Origin: Verrucomicrobiota bacterium
GTDB taxonomy: Bacteria > Verrucomicrobiota > Verrucomicrobiia > Chthoniobacterales > UBA6821
DNA: 32,000 nucleotides
Reading direction: 5' to 3'
NCBI GenBank assembly: GCA_008932965.1
Contig: WBXG01000005.1
Location: 1-32,000, forward strand
The stretch's first letter is position 1; each line of letters begins with the position of its first letter. Below the pieces are notes generated by a model, which saw nothing but the letters and a program-made list of their open reading frames with translations, did not search any database and was not told where the DNA came from. Position numbers and translations under genes: made by a program. This document shows positions 1,093 to 27,696 of the stretch, piece by piece.

Positions 1093-2330
1093 TGGAAAAG
1101 AAAATCTCTCGACAGGCTATCTCTATTGTTTGGGGAGGAGCTATTTCATTTGTAGTTGCCATGGGATTTGCTAGGTTTGCATTCACCCCTCTTCTTCCGA
1201 TGATGCTTCACGATCATGTAATTGATCTGCAAGGGGGGACTTTCTTAGCGAGTATTCATTATATTGGATATCTTTTAGGGGCCAGTACATGTGTGCTCCT
1301 ACCATGGTTGCTCTCTCACTATAAAATTAGGATACCAAGTCATAGTGCAATCATTCGCTATAGTCTTTTGGTAACAGTGCTCTTGATTTTTGGCATGGCT
1401 CTTCCTTTTCCATGGCTCTGGCCTGCATGTCGATTTCTCACAGGAATCTCTACTGCTTTTGCATTTGTCTACACCTCGGGATGGTCTCTTGAACGACTTG
1501 CACAGCTCCAGGCTCTCTCATTAAGCGGACTCATTTATACTGGGCCTGGGATTGGCATTGTTCTCTCGGGGATGATTTCTATCCTGATGATTTTTTTTCA
1601 TTTCTCCTCTAGTGCTGCATGGTTGGGATTTTCAGTAATAGCAGCTTTCATGATCGCTGCTGTTTGGAAGACATTCCATGGGGATTTGATGAAGCATTCC
1701 TCCATTACCGAAACAAGAGATCTCCTGATTCCTGTGCCAGAAATGTGGACCTTAGAATCGATTTTCTTAATCATTGCCTATGGTCTTGCTGGATTTGGCT
1801 ACATTATTACCGCGACATTTTTACCCGTAATTGCCCATGAGGTGATTCCCAAATCGGCTTGGATTGATTATCTTTGGCCAATTTTTGGAGTGAGTGTTGT
1901 CATTGGAGCTCTCATCACAAAAAAAATTCCCCATGGAGCAGATCGTCGCTCTGTTTTATTTTTTATTTACATCATGCAATTAACAGGAGTTCTGATGCCT
2001 CTTGGGTTTCCTAGCCAAGGGGGCTTTCTCCTAGGGATTATTTTGGTGGGATTTCCTTTCAATATTATCTCACTTTTAGGAATGCAGGAAGCACGCCGGC
2101 TGCGACCGCAAGAATCAACAACACTCATGGGCTTGCTAAGTGCCATGTATGGATTAGGACAAATTTTAGGTCCATCGGTGGCTTCCTATTTTCTAAGTCA
2201 TAGCAAAAGTCATGCTCAGGCATTCTCCTTTTCCTTGATGACCGCAGCTGCAAGTCTCGGGGTCGGTGCATTTTTTTTCCTGCTCATGAGATGTTTATTT
2301 CCAATCAAAGCGATTGTATCTCACGATTAG
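1092..2330 (+). CDS. YbfB/YjiJ-type MFS transporter
   Basis: 412-aa ORF with about 12 hydrophobic segments. The N-terminal GFARFAFTPLLPMM motif is as I recall for the YbfB/YjiJ MFS family. A 1-nt overlap with tatC suggests translational coupling. Confidence 0.7.
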   Translation: MEKKISRQAISIVWGGAISFVVAMGFARFAFTPLLPMMLHDHVIDLQGGTFLASIHYIGYLLGASTCVLLPWLLSHYKIRIPSHSAIIRYSLLVTVLLIFGMALPFPWLWPACRFLTGISTAFAFVYTSGWSLERLAQLQALSLSGLIYTGPGIGIVLSGMISILMIFFHFSSSAAWLGFSVIAAFMIAAVWKTFHGDLMKHSSITETRDLLIPVPEMWTLESIFLIIAYGLAGFGYIITATFLPVIAHEVIPKSAWIDYLWPIFGVSVVIGALITKKIPHGADRRSVLFFIYIMQLTGVLMPLGFPSQGGFLLGIILVGFPFNIISLLGMQEARRLRPQESTTLMGLLSAMYGLGQILGPSVASYFLSHSKSHAQAFSFSLMTAAASLGVGAFFFLLMRCLFPIKAIVSHD

Positions 2331-2438
2331 CCTGAATATTTTAACGATGGCTGCCTCCTTTAGTAGCGGAGTATGAATGTGCGCTTGCAGTAGAGATGCG
2401 CCTGTGGCCACGGCATTGAAAGCATTTACATGCTCTAG

Positions 2439-2514
2439 TGGCGACCCTAACGGGATTCGAACCCGTGTTACCCCCGTGAAAGGGGGGTGTCCTAGGCCTC
2501 TGGACGATAGGGTC
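2439..2514 (-). tRNA. tRNA-Glu (anticodon UUC), CCA encoded
   Basis: Hand-folded cloverleaf. Acceptor GACCCTA/TAGGGTC, D stem GTCC/GGAC, anticodon stem CCCCC/GGGGG with loop CTTTCAC, T arm CGGG-TTCGAATC-CCG. Close to E. coli tRNA-Glu. Confidence 0.93.
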
Positions 2515-2817
2515 AAAAGTCTGCTTTAAAATTTTATGAATGCTAATATTGGAGGGGCTACTTTGAACTATAGAAAGCCTCTGAGACCTATTGAGAGTTT
2601 CATGATGAAGCCGAAGTCAAACCGCTTTAGAAAATTCTAATACATGAACTCAAGCTAGCACAAAGAGACTCAAGTATCGCTTTTCCCCTCTTCAAAACTC
2701 AAAAATGTGAAAGCAGACTTTCTTGAGGAGCTAAACACCCTAATAGCAAAAGTAGAGAAGTTCAATGGGAAAAAGAAAAATTCAGAAGAATAAAGTATTC
2801 TCTCAAGTGTTATCGAT

Positions 2818-2849
2818 TAACCCGGGTATTTTAAACTGATCGTGACGAG
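2818..2849 (-). repeat. Terminal remnant (right-end TIR region) of the MITE-like family
   Basis: taacccgggtattttaaactgatcgtgacgag matches the reverse complement of the copy A right end (taacccgcatatttcatactgatcgtgacgag) at 28 of 32 positions. It lies 14 nt past the HIT gene stop. Confidence 0.6.
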
Positions 2850-2863
2850 TCCCTCTATCGCTT

Positions 2864-3211
2864 TTATCCGGGAGGCCATTCCATCTGGCGCCCACCTAGA
2901 AGATGGAGATGTAAGTGAGGTACCGCCTCTCCCCCTTCTTTTCCATTGTTGATAACAATGCGAAAACCAGATTCAGTGAGATGTTCTATTTCTGCAACTT
3001 TTACTGCAGCTAAGAGTAATCTGCCTAAAATCATCTGATCCTCTGCTGTTGTCTGAGTGATACGTGGGATCGGTTTTTTAGGAACAATGAGAAGGTGTGT
3101 TGGTGCTTGTGGAGCTATATCTCTAAAAGCAATCCAATCCTCTTCTTCTGCGACAATATCGGCAGGAATAGTACGTGCGATAATTTTTTCAAACAGGGTC
3201 ATGGAAGGCAT
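2864..3211 (-). CDS. HIT-family (histidine triad) nucleotide-binding protein
   Basis: 115-aa ORF with the C-terminal histidine triad HLHLHLLGG and a HinT-like N-terminus (LFEKIIARTIPADIV). Confidence 0.88.
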   Translation of the reverse strand: MPSMTLFEKIIARTIPADIVAEEEDWIAFRDIAPQAPTHLLIVPKKPIPRITQTTAEDQMILGRLLLAAVKVAEIEHLTESGFRIVINNGKEGGEAVPHLHLHLLGGRQMEWPPG

Positions 3212-3319
3212 GTCACGGGTAATGGGTATTGGGTAAAAGAAAATGATTGTTGCAGGACTATTTTAAAAAAAAGATTCAAAAATGGTGCTCGTTGCCCATT
3301 ACTTGTTACTACAGTCAAT

Positions 3320-3895
3320 CTAAGAAAGTTCTATTTCGAGTGGCTTTTGATTTTTTCTTTTGTTGAGAAAAAAGTGTGAGCGGCCGTAGCGTCTAATAAA
3401 GTTCACAATTTCTTCACGTAATATGTCGTGACTTCCTAAACGAACTCGATGTTGGAGCTGACGCAAGCAGGGTTCTAGGTCATTAATCTCCAGACGAAGG
3501 CTACTTGATTCAGCGATTTCTTGAAGACGTTTACGTAGGAGGGGAAAAAATACCAGCTCGTAAGCAGTTCCTGCTTCTTGCACAAGCTCTAGAAGTGAGA
3601 GCGATACAGGGGGATCAGGTAGAGAAAATGTGGCAGCAATTGCCTCATATTTTAAAGAGATAAGCAGGTTCTCAATCACCTTTTCTAGTTTCTCAAGAGT
3701 GATGACGGTTCCTTTACACTCTTGTTGAAGGTAAATAGTAATAGCATCTGTGAGCTCTGATGCCATGGACCAATGCTCCTGGCCCGCTCTCTTTGAAGCC
3801 TGTTCTAGCGCTACTATTATCCACTCTTTATTAAAGGAAGCAGAATGGCCTTTAGGAGTAATAACCAATGGTATTCCATGCCGAAGAACGATCAT
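3320..3895 (-). CDS. Hypothetical protein (no recognisable family)
   Basis: 191-aa ORF on the same strand, lying between nrdR and the HIT gene. I recognise no motif. Called on ORF length and operon-like context only. Confidence 0.5.
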   Translation of the reverse strand: MIVLRHGIPLVITPKGHSASFNKEWIIVALEQASKRAGQEHWSMASELTDAITIYLQQECKGTVITLEKLEKVIENLLISLKYEAIAATFSLPDPPVSLSLLELVQEAGTAYELVFFPLLRKRLQEIAESSSLRLEINDLEPCLRQLQHRVRLGSHDILREEIVNFIRRYGRSHFFLNKRKNQKPLEIELS

Positions 3896-6279: not shown

Positions 6280-6457
6280 CCCGCATATTTGATACCGATT
6301 CTGCTGCGGCTTGCGAACCCCTAATGGATACTGCGTCAGTCTCGAATTGCTCCTCGGGCAGTATGAAACATACAGCCCTGCATCAAAATGCTCGCCTGCC
6401 TTACCCCATCAGCCTTCGCGGCCTCCTCGTCACGATCAGCATGAAACATCCGGGTTA
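6277..6457 (+). mobile_element. MITE-like repeat family, copy B (181 bp, full length)
   Basis: TIRs are taacccgcatatttgat at the left and atgaaacatccgggtta at the right, with TA at both ends. Internal blocks are shared with copies A, D and E. Confidence 0.85.
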
Positions 6458-6473
6458 ATGAGGCTTGTTTTTT

Positions 6474-7265: not shown

Positions 7266-7420
7266 TCATTCGAATATTTCACACTAAATTTATTACAGCT
7301 TGTGAAAAGCTCTATGGCTACTGCGTTAATCTCGAATTGTGATTGGGGTGGTAGGGACTCCTACAGCCGTCATTAGCCTTCGTGGTCTCCTCGTCACGAT
7401 CAGTATGAAAATTCGGGTTA
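7266..7420 (+). mobile_element. MITE-like repeat family, copy C (shorter variant, about 155 bp)
   Basis: The left end cgaatatttcac and the right end cctcgtcacgatcagtatgaaaattcgggtta match the family. The left arm matches the fragment at 168-226. It shares its terminal TA with copy D. Confidence 0.75.
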
Positions 7421-7599
7421 GCCCGAATATTTCATCCCAATCTACTGCGGAAACCGGGAAGTCAGATGGATGCTGCGTTGATCTCGAAGTCTTCCTCGGG
7501 CAGTGTGTATACACACAGCCGTCGTCAGACTTCATCACTCGCCTTGCCCCATGAGCCTTCGCGGTCTCCTCGTCACGATCAGTATGAAAATTCGGGCTA
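7419..7599 (+). mobile_element. MITE-like repeat family, copy D (181 bp, full length)
   Basis: TIRs are tagcccgaatatttcat at the left and atgaaaattcgggcta at the right. There is a central perfect 14-nt palindrome gtgtgtatacacac (7503-7516). The reverse strand is open through the whole element. Confidence 0.88.
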
Positions 7600-7649
7600 G
7601 AGATTCTTTGACTCGTTACCCATTACTCGCTACCGGTTATGTGTCTCAT

Positions 7650-8249
7650 ATGACACTACCTAATCAAATTACTCTTGGTCGGATTTTACTGATTCCCATT
7701 TTTGTGCTCTTAGCTGTCTATTATGGACATAGTGTTGAAGCAGGGGAACCTGAAGAAAAATTACGTATTGCTGCTATTATTGTTTTTTTAGTCGCAGCGC
7801 TTAGCGATGGGGTTGATGGATGGTTAGCACGTCACTTTCGTCTTCAATCTCGCTTAGGGGCTATTCTGGATCCCATTGCTGATAAAGGATTGATGCTAAC
7901 TGCGATCATTACACTGAGTGTGAGTAATTGGGATCGGTCATTACCACTTTGGTTTCCAGTCTTAGTGATTACTCGCGATATCATTATTTTAACCGGATGT
8001 GCTCTGCTTCGTTTTCTCAATGGTTCTCTGGAAATTCGTCCCAGCTCTCTTGGAAAAATTTCTACTTTTTTTCAGATGTTTGCAATCGCAGTGGTATTGC
8101 TGCAGTGGCGTTATTACAGCATTATTGTTGGAATAGCTGGTATTGTTACCTTGCTCAGTGGTATCGGATATATAATCGATGGTGTTCGACTTTTAAAATT
8201 AGGGGGTCATGATAGGCCGACATCGGGAGATGTAATGGGTAATGGGTAA
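7650..8249 (+). CDS. pgsA: CDP-diacylglycerol--glycerol-3-phosphate 3-phosphatidyltransferase (CDP-alcohol phosphatidyltransferase family)
   Basis: Contains the motif DGVDGWLARHFRLQSRLGAILDPIADK. I chose the ATG at 7650 (MTLPNQITLGRILLIP), because the ORF-track start at 7503 lies inside repeat copy D. The last 5 codons and the stop are encoded by the heptamer array. Confidence 0.85.
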   Translation: MTLPNQITLGRILLIPIFVLLAVYYGHSVEAGEPEEKLRIAAIIVFLVAALSDGVDGWLARHFRLQSRLGAILDPIADKGLMLTAIITLSVSNWDRSLPLWFPVLVITRDIIILTGCALLRFLNGSLEIRPSSLGKISTFFQMFAIAVVLLQWRYYSIIVGIAGIVTLLSGIGYIIDGVRLLKLGGHDRPTSGDVMGNG

Positions 8250-8315
8250 TGGGTAATGGGTGGTGAGTGGTGAGTGGTGAGTGGTGAGTAAGGGGTAATG
8301 AGTGATGAGTGATGG
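8232..8315 (+). repeat. Heptanucleotide tandem array 1 (12 units, G-rich on the + strand)
   Basis: Counted by hand: gtaatgg x4, gtggtga x4, then gtaaggg, gtaatga, gtgatga, gtgatgg. Units are reverse complements of units in array 2. Confidence 0.95.
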
Positions 8316-8410
8316 GTTCTAAAGAGCACTATTCATTATCGAACGTAATGTTGAGAAGAGGATTACTCTCAGTACAAATTTCGAAATTTAATTTCATTTC
8401 GATTCTAAAA

Positions 8411-8641
8411 TTACTCCTTACCCATTACCCATCACCCATCACCCATCACCCATCACCCATCACCCATCACCCATCACCCATTACTCCTTACTCCTTACTC
8501 CTTACTCCTTACTCCTTACTCCTTACTCCTTACTCCTTACCCATTACCCATTACCCATTACCCATTACCCATTACCCATTACTCATTACTCATTACTCAT
8601 TACTCATTACTCATTACTCATTACTCATTACTCATTACTCA
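8411..8641 (+). repeat. Heptanucleotide tandem array 2 (33 units in homogeneous blocks, C-rich on the + strand)
   Basis: Counted by hand: ttactcc x1, ttaccca x2, tcaccca x7, ttactcc x8, ttaccca x6, ttactca x9. The array ends 10 nt before the der ATG. Confidence 0.95.
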
Positions 8642-8651
8642 TTCCTTTTTT

Positions 8652-10100
8652 ATGTATCGTGTAGCCATTGTTGGCCGACCTAACGTCGGCAAATCCTCTC
8701 TCTTTAATCGTCTTCTGGGTAGACGTCTTTCTATTGTTCATGACCAACCTGGGGTTACCCGTGACCGGCTTGCAGCAGTGTGTGAAAAAGGAGATATCCC
8801 TTTTGAAATTATCGATACAGGCGGGATTGGAGATGCACCTGACCCTGATTTTGCCGAGGCTACTCATGCCGCAGCCATGGCAGCAATTCAATCTGCAGAC
8901 CTACTTCTCTTTGTGGTTGATGGTCGTGCTGGGGTGACTCCGCTAGATCAAGAATTAGCTCAGCAACTACGTCGAACCGATCGCCCGCTTCTCCTCATTG
9001 TTAATAAAATCGATGAAAAAATGCACGAGTCATTTGTAAGTGATTTTTATGAGCTCGGTTTTGATCAGATTTTAAGCGTGAGTGCAGCCCATGGTGTGGG
9101 ACTGCATCATTTAATGGAGTCTATTGAAAAACATCTTGGGGTATGTGACGAAAAACAATCTCTAGTAAAAGAGGCGATTCCAAAACTTGCTATTGTAGGA
9201 CGCCCTAATGTTGGTAAATCTTCTTTGCTTAACACCATTCTTGGAGAGGAGCGAACTATTGTAAGTCCTATTTCTGGCACAACACGGGATGCTATTGATA
9301 TTCGATGTGACTTAAAAGGGGTTCCCTATTTACTGGTCGATACAGCAGGACTGAGGCATCGATCCAAGCCTGATACCTCAGTGGAGATTTTTAGTGCAAT
9401 GCGAACCCAGGAGGCCTTGCGCCGTGCTGATGTTGGTATTCTTGTTCTTGATGCTACCGTTGATATTACAGCTCAAGATAAACGTATTGCCGGAATACTT
9501 CAGGAATCTTTTAAACCTTGCCTAATTGTTGCCAACAAATGGGATCTTGTTCATAAAGAGGATGGTGGTCGTGCCTCCCAAGGTGAATACGCAGCGATGA
9601 TCCGAAGTGAATTATTTTTTCTCGATTATGCACCGATTATTTGTCTGTCCGCTAAAACCGGTCAGGAAGTAGGACGTCTACTCACCGCCCTTGAAGAAGT
9701 GAGAAAAGCTGCAGAGGTCCGTATCACTACAGGAGAGCTTAATCGATTTTTTAAGGCAGTATGGGAACATCAGCCACCTCCATCACGTGGAGGACGTCGT
9801 TTTAAGCTGCTGTATGCAACTCAGGTTGCTCCCGAAGTGCGCCCTCCATTTCATGCTCCAGAATTTTTGCTCTTCGTCAACGATGCAAAATTAATGACCG
9901 ACTCCTATCATAAGTACCTTCTTCATGCACTTCGCTCGGAGTGGCCTTTTTCAGGACTTCCCATTCGACTGCGTCTTCAGGGAAGGCTCTCTCGCGAAGA
10001 GCAAGATCGCAAGGCTGAAGGAAATGAGCAGCATATTCGAACAAAAATAGAACCGTATGTACTAAAGAGGAATGAAAAAGGAAACCGCTTAGGGGGGTAG
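8652..10100 (+). CDS. der: Ribosome-associated GTPase Der (EngA), two tandem GTPase domains plus a KH-like domain
   Basis: Two G1 motifs, GRPNVGKSSLFN and GRPNVGKSSLLN, each followed by DTGG/DTAG and NKxD motifs. Confidence 0.92.
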   Translation: MYRVAIVGRPNVGKSSLFNRLLGRRLSIVHDQPGVTRDRLAAVCEKGDIPFEIIDTGGIGDAPDPDFAEATHAAAMAAIQSADLLLFVVDGRAGVTPLDQELAQQLRRTDRPLLLIVNKIDEKMHESFVSDFYELGFDQILSVSAAHGVGLHHLMESIEKHLGVCDEKQSLVKEAIPKLAIVGRPNVGKSSLLNTILGEERTIVSPISGTTRDAIDIRCDLKGVPYLLVDTAGLRHRSKPDTSVEIFSAMRTQEALRRADVGILVLDATVDITAQDKRIAGILQESFKPCLIVANKWDLVHKEDGGRASQGEYAAMIRSELFFLDYAPIICLSAKTGQEVGRLLTALEEVRKAAEVRITTGELNRFFKAVWEHQPPPSRGGRRFKLLYATQVAPEVRPPFHAPEFLLFVNDAKLMTDSYHKYLLHALRSEWPFSGLPIRLRLQGRLSREEQDRKAEGNEQHIRTKIEPYVLKRNEKGNRLGG

Positions 10101-14098: not shown

Positions 14099-15880
14099 AT
14101 GCAAAAAAAATGGATTCTTCCTTCTTCGGCAGATTCTAAGCTAGTTGAGAGGCTTGCTAAGGAATTGAAACTACCGCTGGCTCTTACTGAGGTGCTGGTG
14201 CAACGAGGATATGCCTCTGTAGAAGTTGCTACCAATTTTCTCAATCCACGTTTGGCTCAGTTGCGACCTCCTGAGGAGATTCCAAATATTTCTGCGGCAG
14301 CAGATCGTTTGCAAGTGGCATTGCAAAAAAAAGAAAAGATTATTCTTTATGGGGATTATGATGTTGATGGCATTACTTCATTAACCTTGTTGTGTCGCTC
14401 TTTGAGAGCTTTGGGAGGTGACGTTGATTGTTTTATTCCAGAGCGTGCTTCAGAGGGATATGGGCTTAGCAAGGCAGGATTGAAACGGTGTTTTGAAATA
14501 TTCAAGCCAGGCCTTATCGTAGCTGTTGATTGTGGTACAAATTCTTTTGAGGAAGCTCAAATCATCCGGGAACAAAAAATCGATCTTATTGTTGTTGATC
14601 ACCATGAAATTCAAAATAGAGGTCAGGCTAAGATTTTTGACAAAACTTCAATAGTAGTAGAATCAATAGAAACATCATCATGTTTTGTCAAAAATCTTAG
14701 CTTGACCTCTATTTTAGTAAATCCTCAGCTAGGTTCTGACTATCACTATCTTTGTAGTGTTGGCTTGGTTTTCAAGCTCGTTCATGCACTGCTCAAGCGT
14801 TATCCCGCTCCCCCTTTTGACTTACGTGAATATCTTGATCTTGTGGCTTTAGGAACGGTTGCTGATATCGTCCCTCTTACGAAAGAAAATCGTATTTTTG
14901 TGACACATGGTCTCAAGCAGCTAGCTAAATCACGATGGCCGGGAGTAGTAGCTTTAATTAAGATTGCGGAGGTTCAACCCCCCTTTACTACCTATGACGT
15001 AGGTTATAAATTGGGACCTCGTTTAAATGCAGCTGGTCGTCTTTCCTCTGCTTTAGAGGCATTGGAGCTATTGCTCACTGATGATCCTAATACTGCAACT
15101 CGTCTTGCCCATGATTTGGATCTTCGTAACCGTGAACGTCAGCTCATTGAGCGTGCTGTGACCCAAGAGGCAGAGGAATTAGTGACCTCGATTTTTTCAA
15201 CATCCTCTCCTAAAAGCATCGTTTTGGGCCGCTCTCATTGGCATCACGGTGTTGTGGGGATTGTGGCTTCTCGTATTTCAAAACGCTGGCATCGTCCAAC
15301 TCTTATTATTGGTTTTGATGAACAGGGTCTTGGAAAAGGGAGTGGACGGAGTATTGAAGACTTCTCTCTAGTAATGGCTTTAGAAAAGTGCGCTGCTGTT
15401 TTAGAAACTTTTGGAGGGCATGCAATGGCAGCTGGACTCACATTAAAAAAGAAAAATTGTGACATCCTCGCTAGCTCTTTTGAGCAGGCTGCAGAGCTTC
15501 TTCTCACAGAAGAGGAGCTTACTCCTAAATTAAGATTCCATGCAGAAATAAAAACCTCAGAGCTTGATTCCAGTTGGTTGTTGGCACAAGAGAGGCTAGC
15601 CCCGTTTGGTGCAGGAAATGCACAACCGCTTTTTCTGGCTTATTCACTAATTCCGTTGCGAGAGCCACGTCTCTTAAAGGAAAAACATCTTCGTTTTGAA
15701 TTTGCTGGAAAAAAGAATGTTCCCCTCATTGGAATTTTCTTTAATGGCGCTCAAGAGCCCCTTCCAAAGCCACCGTGGGATATTGCTTTTACGCTTATGA
15801 GCAATACTTACCTTGGAAGAACAACGATGCAACTTCAGATTGTTGCGATTCGAACATCCTCGTTATCGCAGTTGATTTAA
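14099..15880 (+). CDS. recJ: Single-stranded-DNA-specific exonuclease RecJ, carrying an in-frame 29-codon palindromic insert
   Basis: DHH-family motifs are present (GDYDVDGITS, VDCGT, VVDHH, GGHAMAAG). The DHH-to-NP spacing is 38 aa here, versus about 13 in E. coli RecJ as I recall it. Confidence 0.92.
   Translation: MQKKWILPSSADSKLVERLAKELKLPLALTEVLVQRGYASVEVATNFLNPRLAQLRPPEEIPNISAAADRLQVALQKKEKIILYGDYDVDGITSLTLLCRSLRALGGDVDCFIPERASEGYGLSKAGLKRCFEIFKPGLIVAVDCGTNSFEEAQIIREQKIDLIVVDHHEIQNRGQAKIFDKTSIVVESIETSSCFVKNLSLTSILVNPQLGSDYHYLCSVGLVFKLVHALLKRYPAPPFDLREYLDLVALGTVADIVPLTKENRIFVTHGLKQLAKSRWPGVVALIKIAEVQPPFTTYDVGYKLGPRLNAAGRLSSALEALELLLTDDPNTATRLAHDLDLRNRERQLIERAVTQEAEELVTSIFSTSSPKSIVLGRSHWHHGVVGIVASRISKRWHRPTLIIGFDEQGLGKGSGRSIEDFSLVMALEKCAAVLETFGGHAMAAGLTLKKKNCDILASSFEQAAELLLTEEELTPKLRFHAEIKTSELDSSWLLAQERLAPFGAGNAQPLFLAYSLIPLREPRLLKEKHLRFEFAGKKNVPLIGIFFNGAQEPLPKPPWDIAFTLMSNTYLGRTTMQLQIVAIRTSSLSQLI
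14621..14707 (+). repeat. 87-bp palindromic element inside recJ (26-nt arms, 35-nt loop)
   Basis: The left arm ggtcaggctaagatttttgacaaaac (14621-14646) pairs with the right arm gttttgtcaaaaatcttagcttgacc (14682-14707), with 25 of 26 positions complementary. It starts on a codon boundary, and 87 nt equals 29 codons. Confidence 0.85.
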
Positions 15881-21246: not shown

Positions 21247-22146
21247 TTACGGCAGCAGTTCAATAATGCAGTGAACTTGATTCTGTGATAATTCAGCAAT
21301 CTGAGCAATTTGTTCCAAGGGTAAACCAGAGCGATGCATACTGATCACAAATCTTTTTTTCTCCTCTTCTTTTCCTTTAGCCTCACCTTGAGCAAGCCCT
21401 TTAGCCTCACCTTGAGCAAGCCCTTGAGCAAGCCCTTCTTTGTACTTGCCACTGAACAGAGTTCTTTCAGAGCTCACTGCATCCCAGCTTTTATCGTAGG
21501 CAAGTAATTCAGCTTCGCTGTAGGAAGCGATTTCTAGAAGAGAGATGGCCTCTTTGATCGAATCTACTTCCAAAAAACTGGGATCGACAACTTCTGTTTT
21601 TTCGTTGATCTCTTTTAAAAAACGGAGCCAAAGAACAGTAGCTCTTTTTGTGGTGATGCTGGTTGGTTTGAACTTAGGAAGTTCAATAAGGACCAATTGA
21701 ATATCTTCTAAACTCTTGCTTTCATCATGAGCATTGGTCATTCGGTAATGATGAAACCACTCTTGTTCTTGAGAAAAAGTGGTATCTAGTAACGCCACTC
21801 CATAGACAGGGCTGAGGTGTTCATAGCTTTTCCCTTTCTTTAATTGCCGAGCATAGGTTGTAGCTGTGTTGAAAAGCATTCTCTTGATAAAATCACTCGT
21901 CCATTGCAATTGCATTTCTACGATGAAGTGACGTCCGTGATTGTCAAAGCAACGCACATCAACAATAGAATATTTTAACGCAGTAATTTCAGGAACACTC
22001 TCCGAAGGCAAGTAGATCAAACTCTCAATGACGCAATCTGGAGGCAACGGCAAAATAGCATTGAGAAAATCTTGGAGTACATTGGGATGGTGACCAAAAA
22101 TTTTCTTAAAGACTAAATCACTCTTAGGGTCCAGGTAGCGTGGCAT
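21247..22146 (-). CDS. Rpn-family recombination-promoting nuclease / PD-(D/E)XK putative transposase
   Basis: The N-terminus MPRYLDPKSDLVFKKIFGHHPNVLQDFLNAIL is characteristic of the Rpn/YhgA-like family. It has an internal low-complexity GLAQGEAKG repeat. Confidence 0.8.
   Translation of the reverse strand: MPRYLDPKSDLVFKKIFGHHPNVLQDFLNAILPLPPDCVIESLIYLPSESVPEITALKYSIVDVRCFDNHGRHFIVEMQLQWTSDFIKRMLFNTATTYARQLKKGKSYEHLSPVYGVALLDTTFSQEQEWFHHYRMTNAHDESKSLEDIQLVLIELPKFKPTSITTKRATVLWLRFLKEINEKTEVVDPSFLEVDSIKEAISLLEIASYSEAELLAYDKSWDAVSSERTLFSGKYKEGLAQGLAQGEAKGLAQGEAKGKEEEKKRFVISMHRSGLPLEQIAQIAELSQNQVHCIIELLP
21374..21433. repeat. 24-bp tandem repeat (2.5 units) inside the Rpn-like gene
   Basis: cctttagcctcaccttgagcaagc occurs at 21374-21397 and 21398-21421, followed by the half unit ccttgagcaagc. 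It encodes GLAQGLAQGEAKGLAQGEAKG. Confidence 0.9.
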
Positions 22147-25341: not shown

Positions 25342-27696
25342 TTAATTTTCCATTTTTGAAACTAAAATCACAACAGAGCGTGATTCTACTAAGTAACTTT
25401 CCGCATTGATGGAAGGGGCTTCTTTCCAAGGGAGGATGTCCTGAGGCGATTCCTTAAAAGTATCAATACAACAACGCCAGGGTGTGTAGAAATTAGTGCA
25501 CAAGGGAATTTCAAATTCTAGAGATTTCCAAAAAGAATTGATCATGATATGAATCATCACTTTGTGATCATAATTACGCATTGTTGCAGCTAAGGCGTGT
25601 GAATCTGCACCTAGGTCAGGAGCATTGAGTTTGACACCATGCCACTCAATGGCTTTTTCGATAAGAAGTTCTCTCAATGTTTGAGCATAGGTGTCACAAA
25701 GATGACTGCGGTCTAAACGAAAATTAATGAGTTGCCGTGTGAATCGATGGATATCGGCATGTTTCTTGAGGAGGGACCAGTCAAAGGATCCGATATCACC
25801 TGCATGACAGTAGGCATTGTTATTTCCTTGTTGAGTACGTCTCACCTCATCACCAGCTAAAATCATTGGTGTTCCTACAGAGAAAAAAAGTATTGTTAAA
25901 AAATTTTTAATTTGTCGATTGCGTAATTTTTCAATTTCAGAATCCTCCGTAGGCCCCTCCATTCCGCAATTCCAGCTGCAATTGAAATTAGATCCATCGC
26001 GGTTGTTTTCTTGATTAGCTTCATTATGCTTTTCATTATAGCTCACCAGATCATTGAGAGTAAAACCATCGTGACAGGTAATAAAATTGACGCTCTGTTC
26101 AGGGTTTCTCTCTTCATTTTCATAAATATCTGGGCTCCCTGTCATGCGGTAAGCAAGAGATCTAATAGTATTATTATCTCCTTTAATAAAAGAGCGAACA
26201 TCATCACGAAAATGTCCATTCCACTCATTCCAGGAATCTCCAGGAAAATGTCCCACTTGGTACAGTCCGGCAGCATCCCATGCCTCTGCAAATAACTTAA
26301 TGTTTGCTAGTACAGGATCGGATTCGATATCCCAGATAGTAGGAGGATGAGCCATGGGAGTTCCTGATTCATCACGAGAGAGAATAGAGGCTAGATCAAA
26401 ACGAAAACCATCGATATGCATCTCATCAACCCAATAACGAAGAGAGTCAAGAATGAGACGACGCACAATAGATTCATTAGCGTTGAAGGTATTTCCACAA
26501 CCACTAAAGTCAGCATAGGTTGCTTTATCTTTTCCTAAAATATAGTAGGTTTCATTGCCAAGTCCACGGAAAGAGAGTGTAGGGCCATGAAGGCCTCCTT
26601 CCGTAGTGTGATTAAAAACGACATCGAGAATTACTTCAATGTTTGCACGATGCAGTGCTTTGACCATGGAACGAAATTCATCTAATACGGCTAATGGCTC
26701 TTTTTTTGAGGAATACTGAGGATGCGGTGCAAAAAAAGCATAGGGTTGATAGCCCCATATATTAGAAAGGCCATCGGGTGCGTCTTCCGGGTCAAAGGCA
26801 AAGATCGGGAGTAATTCCACAGCAGTGATTCCAAGCTCTTTTAAATAGGGGATTTTTTCAATAACTCCAGCATAGGTACCTCTTTTTTCAGGAGAGAGAC
26901 CAGAATTAGGATTGCTAGTGAATGTCCCAATATTCATTTCGTAAATAACTGTTTTACATAAAGGATGGCGCAAAGGCAAATCACCCTCCCAATCGTAAGA
27001 TTTAGAATGAACAACTACATTTTTTATCGCAGTAACACAATTATCCCCTGGTGCTGCAGCAGCTTTACGGGAACGAGAAGAAGGGAGAGCTATACATTTT
27101 CCATAAGGATCAAGTAATACTTTTTCAGAGTCAAAGCGAAGTCCCTCCTTGCTATTAAAGGGACCATACATACGCCAAGCATAAATTTGGCCCTCTTTCA
27201 GACCAGGTACAAAAACATGCCAATAATGATAAGATCTATTTTGCTGGGTTGTAAGTGGAATCACTTTCGAGGGCTTGGTATCCTCAATATGATCAAAAAG
27301 CAGCAACTCCGCCTGCTTTGCATGTTTTGAAAAGATGCTAAAGTTAACGCCATGCTTAAATACAGTGGCTCCAAGTGGAAAACTTCTCCCCGTCTCCTTG
27401 CCAAATGCTGCTCTTGAAACTAATCCAGATATTTCATGCTCATCACCTACAACAATTGGGGAGCCAGATGGATGCTGCGATGAGCTCAAAGTAGTGCTCT
27501 GGCAGTGTATGCTTGCACCTAGGTCGTCAGACTTCATCACATATCCTGACCCATCAGGCTTCGCAGCCTCCTCGTCACGATCAGTATGAAATATCTCAGT
27601 GAGCTGGGAGGACTCCATGTTTACCTCCTTGGGTTTATTCAAGGACTGAGCGCTAGGAGCTGCTCCAGGGATATTCTTTGTGGTAAGATCTGTCAT
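25342..27696 (-). CDS. glgX: Glycogen debranching enzyme GlgX with a repeat-derived N-terminal extension
   Basis: GH13 debranching core beginning FPLGATVFKHGVNFSIFSKHAKQAELLLFD at about residue 105, with GFRFDLAS and EAWD motifs. About 100 extra N-terminal residues include a translated copy of the MITE-like repeat. An alternative start is the ATG at 27537, inside the repeat. Confidence 0.88.
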   Translation of the reverse strand: MTDLTTKNIPGAAPSAQSLNKPKEVNMESSQLTEIFHTDRDEEAAKPDGSGYVMKSDDLGASIHCQSTTLSSSQHPSGSPIVVGDEHEISGLVSRAAFGKETGRSFPLGATVFKHGVNFSIFSKHAKQAELLLFDHIEDTKPSKVIPLTTQQNRSYHYWHVFVPGLKEGQIYAWRMYGPFNSKEGLRFDSEKVLLDPYGKCIALPSSRSRKAAAAPGDNCVTAIKNVVVHSKSYDWEGDLPLRHPLCKTVIYEMNIGTFTSNPNSGLSPEKRGTYAGVIEKIPYLKELGITAVELLPIFAFDPEDAPDGLSNIWGYQPYAFFAPHPQYSSKKEPLAVLDEFRSMVKALHRANIEVILDVVFNHTTEGGLHGPTLSFRGLGNETYYILGKDKATYADFSGCGNTFNANESIVRRLILDSLRYWVDEMHIDGFRFDLASILSRDESGTPMAHPPTIWDIESDPVLANIKLFAEAWDAAGLYQVGHFPGDSWNEWNGHFRDDVRSFIKGDNNTIRSLAYRMTGSPDIYENEERNPEQSVNFITCHDGFTLNDLVSYNEKHNEANQENNRDGSNFNCSWNCGMEGPTEDSEIEKLRNRQIKNFLTILFFSVGTPMILAGDEVRRTQQGNNNAYCHAGDIGSFDWSLLKKHADIHRFTRQLINFRLDRSHLCDTYAQTLRELLIEKAIEWHGVKLNAPDLGADSHALAATMRNYDHKVMIHIMINSFWKSLEFEIPLCTNFYTPWRCCIDTFKESPQDILPWKEAPSINAESYLVESRSVVILVSKMEN
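27421..27601 (+). mobile_element. MITE-like repeat family, copy E (181 bp, diverged), embedded antisense in the glgX reading frame
   Basis: The left end taatccagatatttcat, the internal block ccagatggatgctgcg, and ggcttcgcagcctcctcgtcacgatcagtatgaaatat align with copies A, B and D at the same spacing. Confidence 0.8.

Follow-up and report, generated by a model that had tools for sequence, protein, structure and literature searches.

Convergent, length-variable heptanucleotide arrays around an invariant 95-nt core between pgsA and der in a freshwater lineage of Verrucomicrobiota

Rehm et al. (2015; PMC4692102) described heptameric GGGNATC and GGGGA(C/T)T repeats in Xanthomonas and Nostoc that are enriched between co-directional genes, with the G-rich strand lying either antisense at most 50 bp upstream of an open reading frame (ORF) or sense at most 50 bp from a stop codon or overlapping it. 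Each Xanthomonas genome holds 70-75 convergent inverted pairs of such arrays, which vary extensively in length between relatives, have housekeeping genes as neighbors and show a preference for four units; no function was assigned to them. Here, we analyze a pair of arrays between the genes pgsA and der in 32,000 nt (the window, whose numbering we follow, with repeat counts in 7-nt units) of contig WBXG01000005.1 from a Verrucomicrobiota bacterium (GenBank assembly GCA_008932965.1). The locus belongs to the class of convergent G-rich heptamer pairs, and its architecture was already known; what is new is a verrucomicrobial host for a pair of the Xanthomonas/Nostoc type, the unusual length of the arrays and a conserved core between them. 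It extends a poorly understood repeat class to Verrucomicrobiota. The explanation that we consider probable is a slippage-driven convergent heptamer pair whose polarity is compatible with gene expression, enclosing a constrained core that would be a control region of der, with a duplex in read-through RNA insulating der. The spacer and its borders are laid out as follows:

7650..8249, + strand: pgsA, CDP-alcohol phosphatidyltransferase; ORF with start ATG at 7650, PF01066 detected on orthologues
8232..8315, + strand: array 1, 12 heptamers with a G-rich, C-free sense strand (0 C in 84 nt)
8316..8410, + strand: unique core, 95 nt, AT-rich, with the palindrome AAATTTCGAAATTT at 8376-8389
8411..8641, + strand: array 2, 33 heptamers with a C-rich, G-free sense strand (0 G in 231 nt)
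8642..8651, + strand: T-rich tail TTCCTTTTTT, 10 nt from the end of array 2 to the der ATG at 8652
8652..10100, + strand: der (engA), ribosome-biogenesis GTPase of 482 aa with two MMR_HSR1 domains and a KH-like domain; homologues are named Der

Array 1 consists of four GTAATGG units (8232-8259), four GTGGTGA units (8260-8287) and then GTAAGGG, GTAATGA, GTGATGA and GTGATGG (8288-8315); all three of its frames hold stop codons. Array 2 begins with one TTACTCC (8411-8417), two TTACCCA (8418-8431) and seven TCACCCA (8432-8480) and continues with eight TTACTCC (8481-8536), six TTACCCA (8537-8578) and nine TTACTCA units (8579-8641); none of its frames contains a stop codon or an ATG. The first-pass annotation, made from the letters of the sequence, had given the coordinates, unit order and unit counts of array 1, core and array 2 exactly to the base, and the 14-nt palindrome that it reported is present in the 95-nt core. 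Its statement that the arrays fill the pgsA-der spacer holds for array 2 and the core, which are intergenic, but only in part for array 1, which overlaps the end of pgsA: the last pgsA codons (..GDVMGNG) and the stop codon TAA (8247-8249), within GGGTAATGG, come from this array. In the conspecific locus L134, a different block composition makes the pgsA product one residue longer (222 versus 221 aa).

The likeness to the pairs described by Rehm et al. (PMC4692102) is extensive: a 7-nt unit, a strong G/C asymmetry between strands, two opposite-strand arrays that are convergent and close (95 nt apart here), an intergenic position between housekeeping genes, and a unit number that varies in relatives at sites of a constant type. 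The stop codon of pgsA lies inside array 1, and 10 nt separate array 2 from the der ATG, in keeping with the 50-bp rule. On the other hand, the units at this locus are GGGTAAT, GTGATGA and GTGGTGA, many without a G3 tract; array 2, with 33 units, exceeds the longest published array (26 units); the present host is verrucomicrobial; and an invariant 95-nt core separates the arrays. Per genome, the 15-32 kb examined contain one long array locus and two mini-arrays, whereas a Xanthomonas genome has about 180 sites. The first-pass annotation had associated heptamer arrays with cyanobacteria; the inverted-pair layout with the same polarity was already on record in Xanthomonas (PMC4692102).

Another counterpart is the TAACTGA direct repeat of marine Beggiatoaceae, cyanobacteria and Bacteroidetes, for which binding by S1, Csp or CsrA-like proteins was proposed (MacGregor 2015; PMC4679880). 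These repeats also lie a few nucleotides upstream of starts, in the "forward" orientation and in regions without canonical ribosome-binding sites, differ between strains by indels in 7-nt steps, and often coincide with contig breaks. They differ in their unit, in being mostly 2-6 copies long and in occurring at many genes per genome, and neither a paired inverted array nor a conserved core was described for them (PMC4679880). As summarized in the same paper, heptamers are the commonest class of long simple sequence repeats (LSSRs; Mrazek et al. 2007), for which slippage was proposed. The LSSR is a statistical category, silent on the pairing of arrays, their polarity and their function. A Nostoc preprint (10.1101/2022.06.06.494920) describes how reporters are affected by heptamer repeats close to start codons. 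Like LSSRs (simple sequence tracts with a unit of 1-11 nt that exceed chance expectation), the arrays studied here are non-random. Tandem Repeats Finder scores them 60, 60 and 251, and the two-unit pattern TYACYCMTYACYCM has 37 matches in the window, all within the two arrays, versus none in 100 dinucleotide-preserving shuffles. The short tandemly repeated repetitive (STRR) heptamers of heterocystous cyanobacteria, with the units CCCCAGT, TTGGTCA and CAACAGT, were reportedly described by Mazel et al. in 1990 and are said to be dispersed in many copies. They are likewise tandem, heptanucleotide, non-coding and strain-polymorphic; the unit sequences and the host are different here, which sets our arrays apart from the STRR family.

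Orthologous spacers were retrieved via the conserved synteny around pgsA-der and fall into four groups by der nucleotide identity:

Species A (the window, L132-L135, L141): array 1 of 12, 13, 13, 13, 11 and 12 units; array 2 of 33, 30, 28, 23, 31 and 17 units
Species B (L120, L121, L136, L137): array 1 of 21 (L121) or 5 units (L136, L137); array 2 of 27 (L121) or 15 units (L136, L137)
Species C (L138-L140): array 1 of 6-7 units; array 2 of 8 units
Outgroups (L122, L126; also L128, L129): neither array 1 nor array 2

Within species A, the der gene of L132 is 99.4% identical to that of the window, and the aligned DNA of five loci is 98.4-99.5% identical. In species B, der is 86% identical to A and 99.6% identical within the group; in species C, it is 85% identical to A and 95% to B. 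The outgroups are more distant, with 75-77% der nucleotide identity (L122, L126) or 87% (L128) and 79% (L129) identity of the Der protein. The strain-to-strain variation in unit number that had been predicted is indeed found, as six conspecific assemblies range over 17-33 units in array 2 and 11-13 units in array 1; the sister species B and C together span 5-21 and 8-27 units, respectively. A seventh species-A allele, with 29 units in array 2, was deduced from a database Der protein translated through the stop-free array. All length differences among alleles are multiples of 7. Among conspecific genomes, the TTACTCC block has 2, 2, 7, 8, 8 or 15 units and the terminal TTACCCA block 3-10 units, and interspersed unit types are also ordered differently from allele to allele. 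Single blocks thus expand and contract between conspecific genomes, as slippage predicts, and we infer that slippage is the mechanism of array length change, in agreement with the first-pass annotation; identical arrays in all relatives, which it had named as evidence to the contrary, were not found.

The same annotation had raised the doubt that the arrays might be an artefact of mis-assembled low-complexity reads. Unit counts come mostly from short-read metagenome assemblies, in which errors are possible, and a stretch of N lies between the arrays in the L120 scaffold. No block has more than 15 identical units (105 nt), a length that typical maximal k-mer sizes exceed, and longer blocks could have been collapsed; for these reasons, individual unit counts may be lower bounds. 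Even so, the array-core-array layout, its boundaries and the core are alike in approximately 13 independent assemblies from different projects (NCBI, JGI, ENA and Logan) and from three species, with pgsA and der invariably on either side, and alleles vary in the order as well as the number of their interspersed units. The related idea that the arrays are the termini of an insertion resembling a miniature inverted-repeat transposable element (MITE) might draw on an unrelated dispersed repeat of about 170 nt that the window carries. However, neither the window nor any other locus examined has more than one copy of the core, searches of plasmid and phage collections with it gave no match, and neither target-site duplications nor a transposase were seen. 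Dispersed copies with terminal inverted repeats, which characterize MITEs and repetitive extragenic palindromic elements, are therefore not what this single locus presents. We consider it extremely improbable that mis-assembly or insertion of a mobile element accounts for the arrays.

Variability of this kind might also mark a contingency (phase-variation) locus, at which the unit number tunes or switches der, through the distance between promoter and start codon or through an upstream frame, as adaptive bet-hedging. Simple sequence repeats in promoters or leaders are typical of such loci, for example the TTTTGAT heptads of V. cholerae ctxAB and the 7-bp repeats of the H. influenzae hmw genes, where heptad repeats tune the promoter. 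Promoter tuning by heptads is also the subject of a preprint on ctxAB (bioRxiv 10.1101/2021.05.14.444153), and the AGAT repeats of M. catarrhalis uspA2 are cited as a contingency-locus repeat in PMC4679880. Our locus likewise has a short tandem repeat that extends toward the start codon and varies in copy number between strains: every sampled genome has a different allele, with 17-33 units in genomes that are 98.4-99.5% identical. Furthermore, an ORF that opens at the array 1/core junction fuses in frame with der when the unit number is 2 modulo 3, as in gene calls of 558 and 586 aa. However, at the known contingency loci, the repeats act on surface or virulence genes and their effect on expression has been measured, whereas der encodes an essential housekeeping GTPase; L136 and L137 have a stop codon that interrupts the upstream frame; and Rehm et al. 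(PMC4692102) found no tie of heptameric repeats to phase-variable functions. We are therefore very doubtful that the locus serves phase variation.

The stop-free array has consequences for annotation. Two database Der proteins from conspecific assemblies, P0126 (586 aa) and P0127 (558 aa), have false N-terminal extensions of 104 and 76 residues (MGSKEHYSLSNVMLRRGLL...PITHYPLPITH...), which arise at unit numbers of 2 modulo 3 because all frames of array 2 are free of stop codons. In L141, the Der call (2167-3843) is joined to the upstream frame that opens at the array 1/core junction. Longer Der homologues were also considered as a sign of further arrays, an idea that we rejected, as their extra length consists of linker and C-terminal insertions. 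In practical terms, the locus breaks or gaps assemblies, as the run of N in L120 illustrates, and causes mis-annotation of Der; it is also a ready strain-typing marker for this freshwater lineage. With many alleles in near-identical genomes around a conserved non-coding core upstream of an essential gene, it amounts to a clean natural experiment.

The invariance of the core across species is the most unusual feature of the locus, and it was missed by the first-pass annotation. The core is identical at 95 of 95 positions in species A, species C and L121 (species B), and L136 and L137 carry a single substitution. For comparison, third codon positions of der are 63-67% identical between species A and B or C, and der overall is 85-86% identical. 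In a ranking of the exact matches that the window shares with the sister species, the core (103-106 nt with adjoining units) comes second: the match at tRNA-Thr and the start of tuf is longer (229 nt), and those at tRNA-Asp (82 nt) and tRNA-Trp (75 nt) are shorter. Because of this identity relative to third codon positions and this rank among tRNA genes, the core is conserved at the level of tRNA and under strong constraint. In all three species, it lies between pgsA and der. A search with a 24-mer of the core gave no match in a metagenome contig collection, which evidently does not include the JGI samples that carry the core.

Several identities of the core were considered and rejected. As a structured RNA, it has a fold z score of only -0.6 on both strands and matches no family in Rfam 15, where the best sub-threshold hit is miRNA-hairpin noise at 22.9 bits versus a gathering score of 85. 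As for a coding role, a stop codon has arisen within the sole open frame of the core in L136 and L137, and fusion of that frame with der depends on the unit number modulo 3. The motif CATTA-N7-TAATG is faintly reminiscent of a dif/Xer site, but the cumulative GC skew rises steadily, with no switch in the window. Inspection by eye revealed no convincing match to a CIRCE or DnaA-box site, and alignment with the outgroups yielded nothing firm beyond a short ATTATYGAAC..GTAWTGTT stretch shared with L122. The core does contain a weak promoter-like pair, TTGAGA (8351-8356) and TACAAAT at a spacing of 16-17 nt. The core most probably carries the promoter, an operator or the leader start of der.

The orientation of the arrays fits the composition of leaders in this clade. 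In the 30 nt preceding the 22 gene starts of the window, and likewise in L122 and L126, G makes up 10-12% versus 21-24% genome-wide, and a Shine-Dalgarno-like motif precedes 1 of 22, 1 of 15 and 0 of 12 genes. This suggests that the clade uses Shine-Dalgarno-independent initiation, as do Bacteroidota and many cyanobacteria.

We scanned 185,579 species-representative genomes with a degenerate four-unit pattern, which detected at least 119 loci, and the results in this and the following paragraphs that concern other phyla refer to the matches listed. They come from cyanobacteria, Pirellulales, other Verrucomicrobiota, Acidobacteriota, Bacteroidota, Chloroflexota, Gemmatimonadota and others, and none of those listed belongs to the window's own lineage. 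The heptamer family is therefore found in Pirellulales and other Verrucomicrobiota, contrary to the earlier impression that it was not known in PVC-like (Planctomycetes-Verrucomicrobia-Chlamydiae) genomes. Among neighboring arrays of opposite strand type that are at most 500 nt apart, a G-type array is followed by a C-type array in 38 cases and the reverse order occurs in 3 (binomial p = 1e-8), a test that is independent of gene calls; as the G-then-C order reads the same on both strands, the polarity is real. A crude test based on gene calls (odds ratio 3.2, p = 1e-4) agrees with the test of array order. Examples of the order stop codon, G-array, short spacer, C-array and ATG are seen in Pyrinomonadaceae and others. 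G-then-C layouts occur in many phyla, with spacers of 0-400 nt that share no common core. We infer that the orientation of the arrays is kept by selection.

Repeats of other types occupy comparable positions in the outgroups, where spacers contain short tandem repeats of other 6-8-nt units (AGTTGA / TCAACT, GTTGAAAA, CTACGAA) at several intergenic ends. Purine-rich GTTGAAG-like units follow stop codons, and their CTTCAAC-like complement precedes starts. The copies are located as follows:

L122: 5173-5204, 6170-6198, 7922-7948 and 8034-8058
L126: 5392-5416, 6444-6481, 9890-9910 and 9966-9995
L128: 735-759

In Dolichospermum sp. (L086, 4038-4583), a GGTAATG array and a TACCCAT array surround a unique segment of about 360 nt. 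Inspected by eye, the segment resembles a complete gene of small size, which may encode a four-helix-bundle protein of the "23S rRNA intervening sequence protein" type.

The two arrays can pair with each other. The perfect complementarity between GTAATGG and TTACCCA units that had been pointed out earlier is exact: the reverse complement of the four GTAATGG units is found in three registers of the TTACCCA block. The DNA cruciform proposed on this basis is unlikely, because the perfect complementary blocks, with arms of 28 bp, are about 280 bp apart; pairing in RNA, with about 85 pairs when G-U pairs are counted, would be the more relevant possibility. Folded as one RNA, the whole spacer has a predicted energy of -144 kcal/mol (z = -10.5), and the predicted pairs join array 1 to the der-proximal part of array 2, so that the base of the stem abuts the U-run before the der AUG. 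In the eight alleles that were folded, 82-96% of the array-1 segment is paired, and array 1 is the shorter of the two in every allele. Species B and C, as well as the outgroups L128, L122 and L126, retain the T-run ahead of the der ATG. The ends of the outgroup spacers pair despite unrelated units in L128 (GGGGUUGAGGAG/CUCCUCAACCC, z = -4.0) and L122 (z = -2.4). As a separate observation, L128 has a small hairpin, GCUGCGUUAGCAGC, followed by a U-rich run (758-797) between the stem that closes the spacer and the der AUG, an arrangement that resembles a terminator.

Such pairing raises the alternative of a selected long-range RNA hairpin, in which complementarity of the arrays is needed because they form a stalk for processing or termination, and the core is an apical RNA released by RNase III, similar to the excision of rRNA; a stalk built of repeats would allow its length to drift. 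This alternative would explain why array 1 is almost completely paired to a longer array 2 in eight of eight alleles, why end-to-end complementarity of the spacer persists in L128 and L122, why the core is conserved like a tRNA gene and why the base of the stem abuts the U-run. However, complementarity arises automatically in convergent arrays of one family, the core by itself is unstructured and matches no Rfam family, and its lack of variation leaves no covariation to examine. Moreover, the stem of L126 is not significant, the spacer of L129 is only 36 nt long, and the G-then-C layouts of many phyla lack a common core. On balance, we consider a selected hairpin unlikely.

A further version, which we likewise regard as improbable, takes array, core and array together as one selected module: an RNA hairpin with heptamer-built arms around the invariant core, whose stalk length evolves by slippage. 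Transcripts that extend past pgsA would end at the U-run or be cleaved by RNase III in the stalk, and the core would be an insulated der promoter or a released small RNA. If true, the G-then-C heptamer pairs of other phyla would represent a general, unrecognized class of insulator or processing signals.

G-quadruplex (G4) formation was proposed for GGGNATC repeats, and here, too, GGGTAAT and GGGTGAT units (G3N4) might form putative G4 structures that modulate der expression or pgsA termination. Canonical G4 motifs occur nowhere in the window but in the arrays (8237-8260 on the + strand; 8421-8479 and 8540-8577 on the - strand), and exactly four GGGTAAT tracts are located at the pgsA stop codon, which recalls the four-unit preference in PMC4692102. 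However, of the eight alleles, three retain the + strand motif and seven the - strand motif, and blocks of GTGGTGA, GTGATGA, TTACTCA and TTACTCC units lack any G3 or C3 tract, so that only the GGGTAAT and GGGTGAT units have the potential. A G4 element is, in our opinion, a quite unlikely explanation of the locus.

In the explanation that we favor, the arrays would grow and shrink by replication slippage in 7-nt steps, and the G-rich strand, sense right after the pgsA stop codon and antisense right before the der start, would represent the tolerated orientation. Ahead of der, a sense strand without G, ATG or stop codons would suit the G-poor leaders of this clade, which lack Shine-Dalgarno motifs; after pgsA, the units of array 1 would supply stop codons in every frame. 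If the core contains the promoter, operator or leader start of der, array 2 would become a length-variable, unstructured 5' leader. In RNA reading through from pgsA, array 1 could zip onto array 2 to form a duplex of about 40-125 bp that ends at the U-run before the der AUG, and this duplex would terminate the read-through RNA or be cleaved from it, leaving der insulated. The anatomy of the locus, its hypervariability, the conservation of the core, the rule of orientation, the composition of leaders and the potential for pairing are observed; a promoter within the core and a role for the stem between the arrays are proposed. Whichever part proves correct, the locus is a convenient system in which tolerated slippage products can be compared with leaders, insulators or G4 elements.

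Several points weigh against this explanation. A scan of the core for consensus promoters detected no + strand site of the sigma-70 type, neither strand of the core folds significantly, and full invariance over 95 nt exceeds what a simple promoter usually needs. The near-automatic complementarity of convergent arrays with one unit family makes the stem weak evidence of selection, and it is joined by the non-significant stem of L126; a T-run after the C-type array is not regular among the matches from other phyla. Finally, the crude gene-call test of polarity carries a bias, since stop codons are present in G-type units but absent from C-type units.

The host is a low-GC, Chthoniobacterales-like verrucomicrobium (G+C content of the window, 42%), and the nearest Der proteins come from freshwater and soil metagenome-assembled genomes named Chthoniobacterales, Verrucomicrobiae or Verrucomicrobiota. 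A chlamydial origin, to which gene order and EF-Tu had seemed to point, was rejected on the strength of these Der homologues and genome names. The first-pass annotation had the PVC affiliation and both gene names (pgsA, der) right. The gene order is tatC, a major facilitator superfamily transporter, a HIT-family gene, nrdR, a ubiD-like gene, a SQS/PSY-like gene, pgsA, der, pdxH, tRNA-Thr and tuf, onward to nusG and recJ. Two mini-arrays precede genes of this region, both with a sense orientation like that of array 2:

7616..7626, + strand (sense): heptamer mini-array of 1.5 units, TTACCCATTAC, 24 nt upstream of the pgsA start
3217..3236, - strand: heptamer mini-array of three units (sense TTACCCA ATACCCA TTACCCG), 4 nt upstream of the HIT-family gene start

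At the position that matches the 1.5-unit stretch, the sister species shows a CGTTAYC-like periodicity of 7 nt. The mini-array of the HIT gene also has three units in sister species B, with different unit sequences. A shared flank, GGGTCATGATAGGC at array 1 and GGGTCATGGAAGGC at the HIT mini-array, was considered as a possible link between the two and dismissed as coincidental, because GGGTCATGATAGGC is conserved pgsA coding sequence (GHDRP) in all relatives.

Other repeats in the region are unrelated to the heptamer arrays. The dispersed intergenic family of about 170 nt is found in the window at 4-170, 6290-6460, 7285-7424, 7437-7603 and 27429-27605, with a partial inverted copy at 2813-2849; it has a highly conserved 3' block, CATCAGCCTTCGCGGTCTCCTCGTCACGATCAGTATGAAA, and copies are also present in a sister species (L120). 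Compared with the conspecific L132, the window has one extra tandem copy upstream of pgsA (about 7421-7550), and L132 has approximately 80 extra nt at 6377-6415 relative to the window. Within recJ (14099-15880), a 34-nt inverted repeat has arms at 14613-14646 and 14682-14715 that are 97% complementary and separated by 35 nt. It corresponds to an in-frame insertion of about 28 residues (about 172-200) that is absent from RecJ of outgroup L126, and it looks like a palindromic element that was inserted and left the gene unbroken. Lastly, a 24-nt/12-nt tandem repeat, CCTTTAGCCTCACCTTGAGCAAGC (2.3 copies, 21374-21437), is presumably a coding repeat, because it lies inside a minus-strand ORF (21247-22146).

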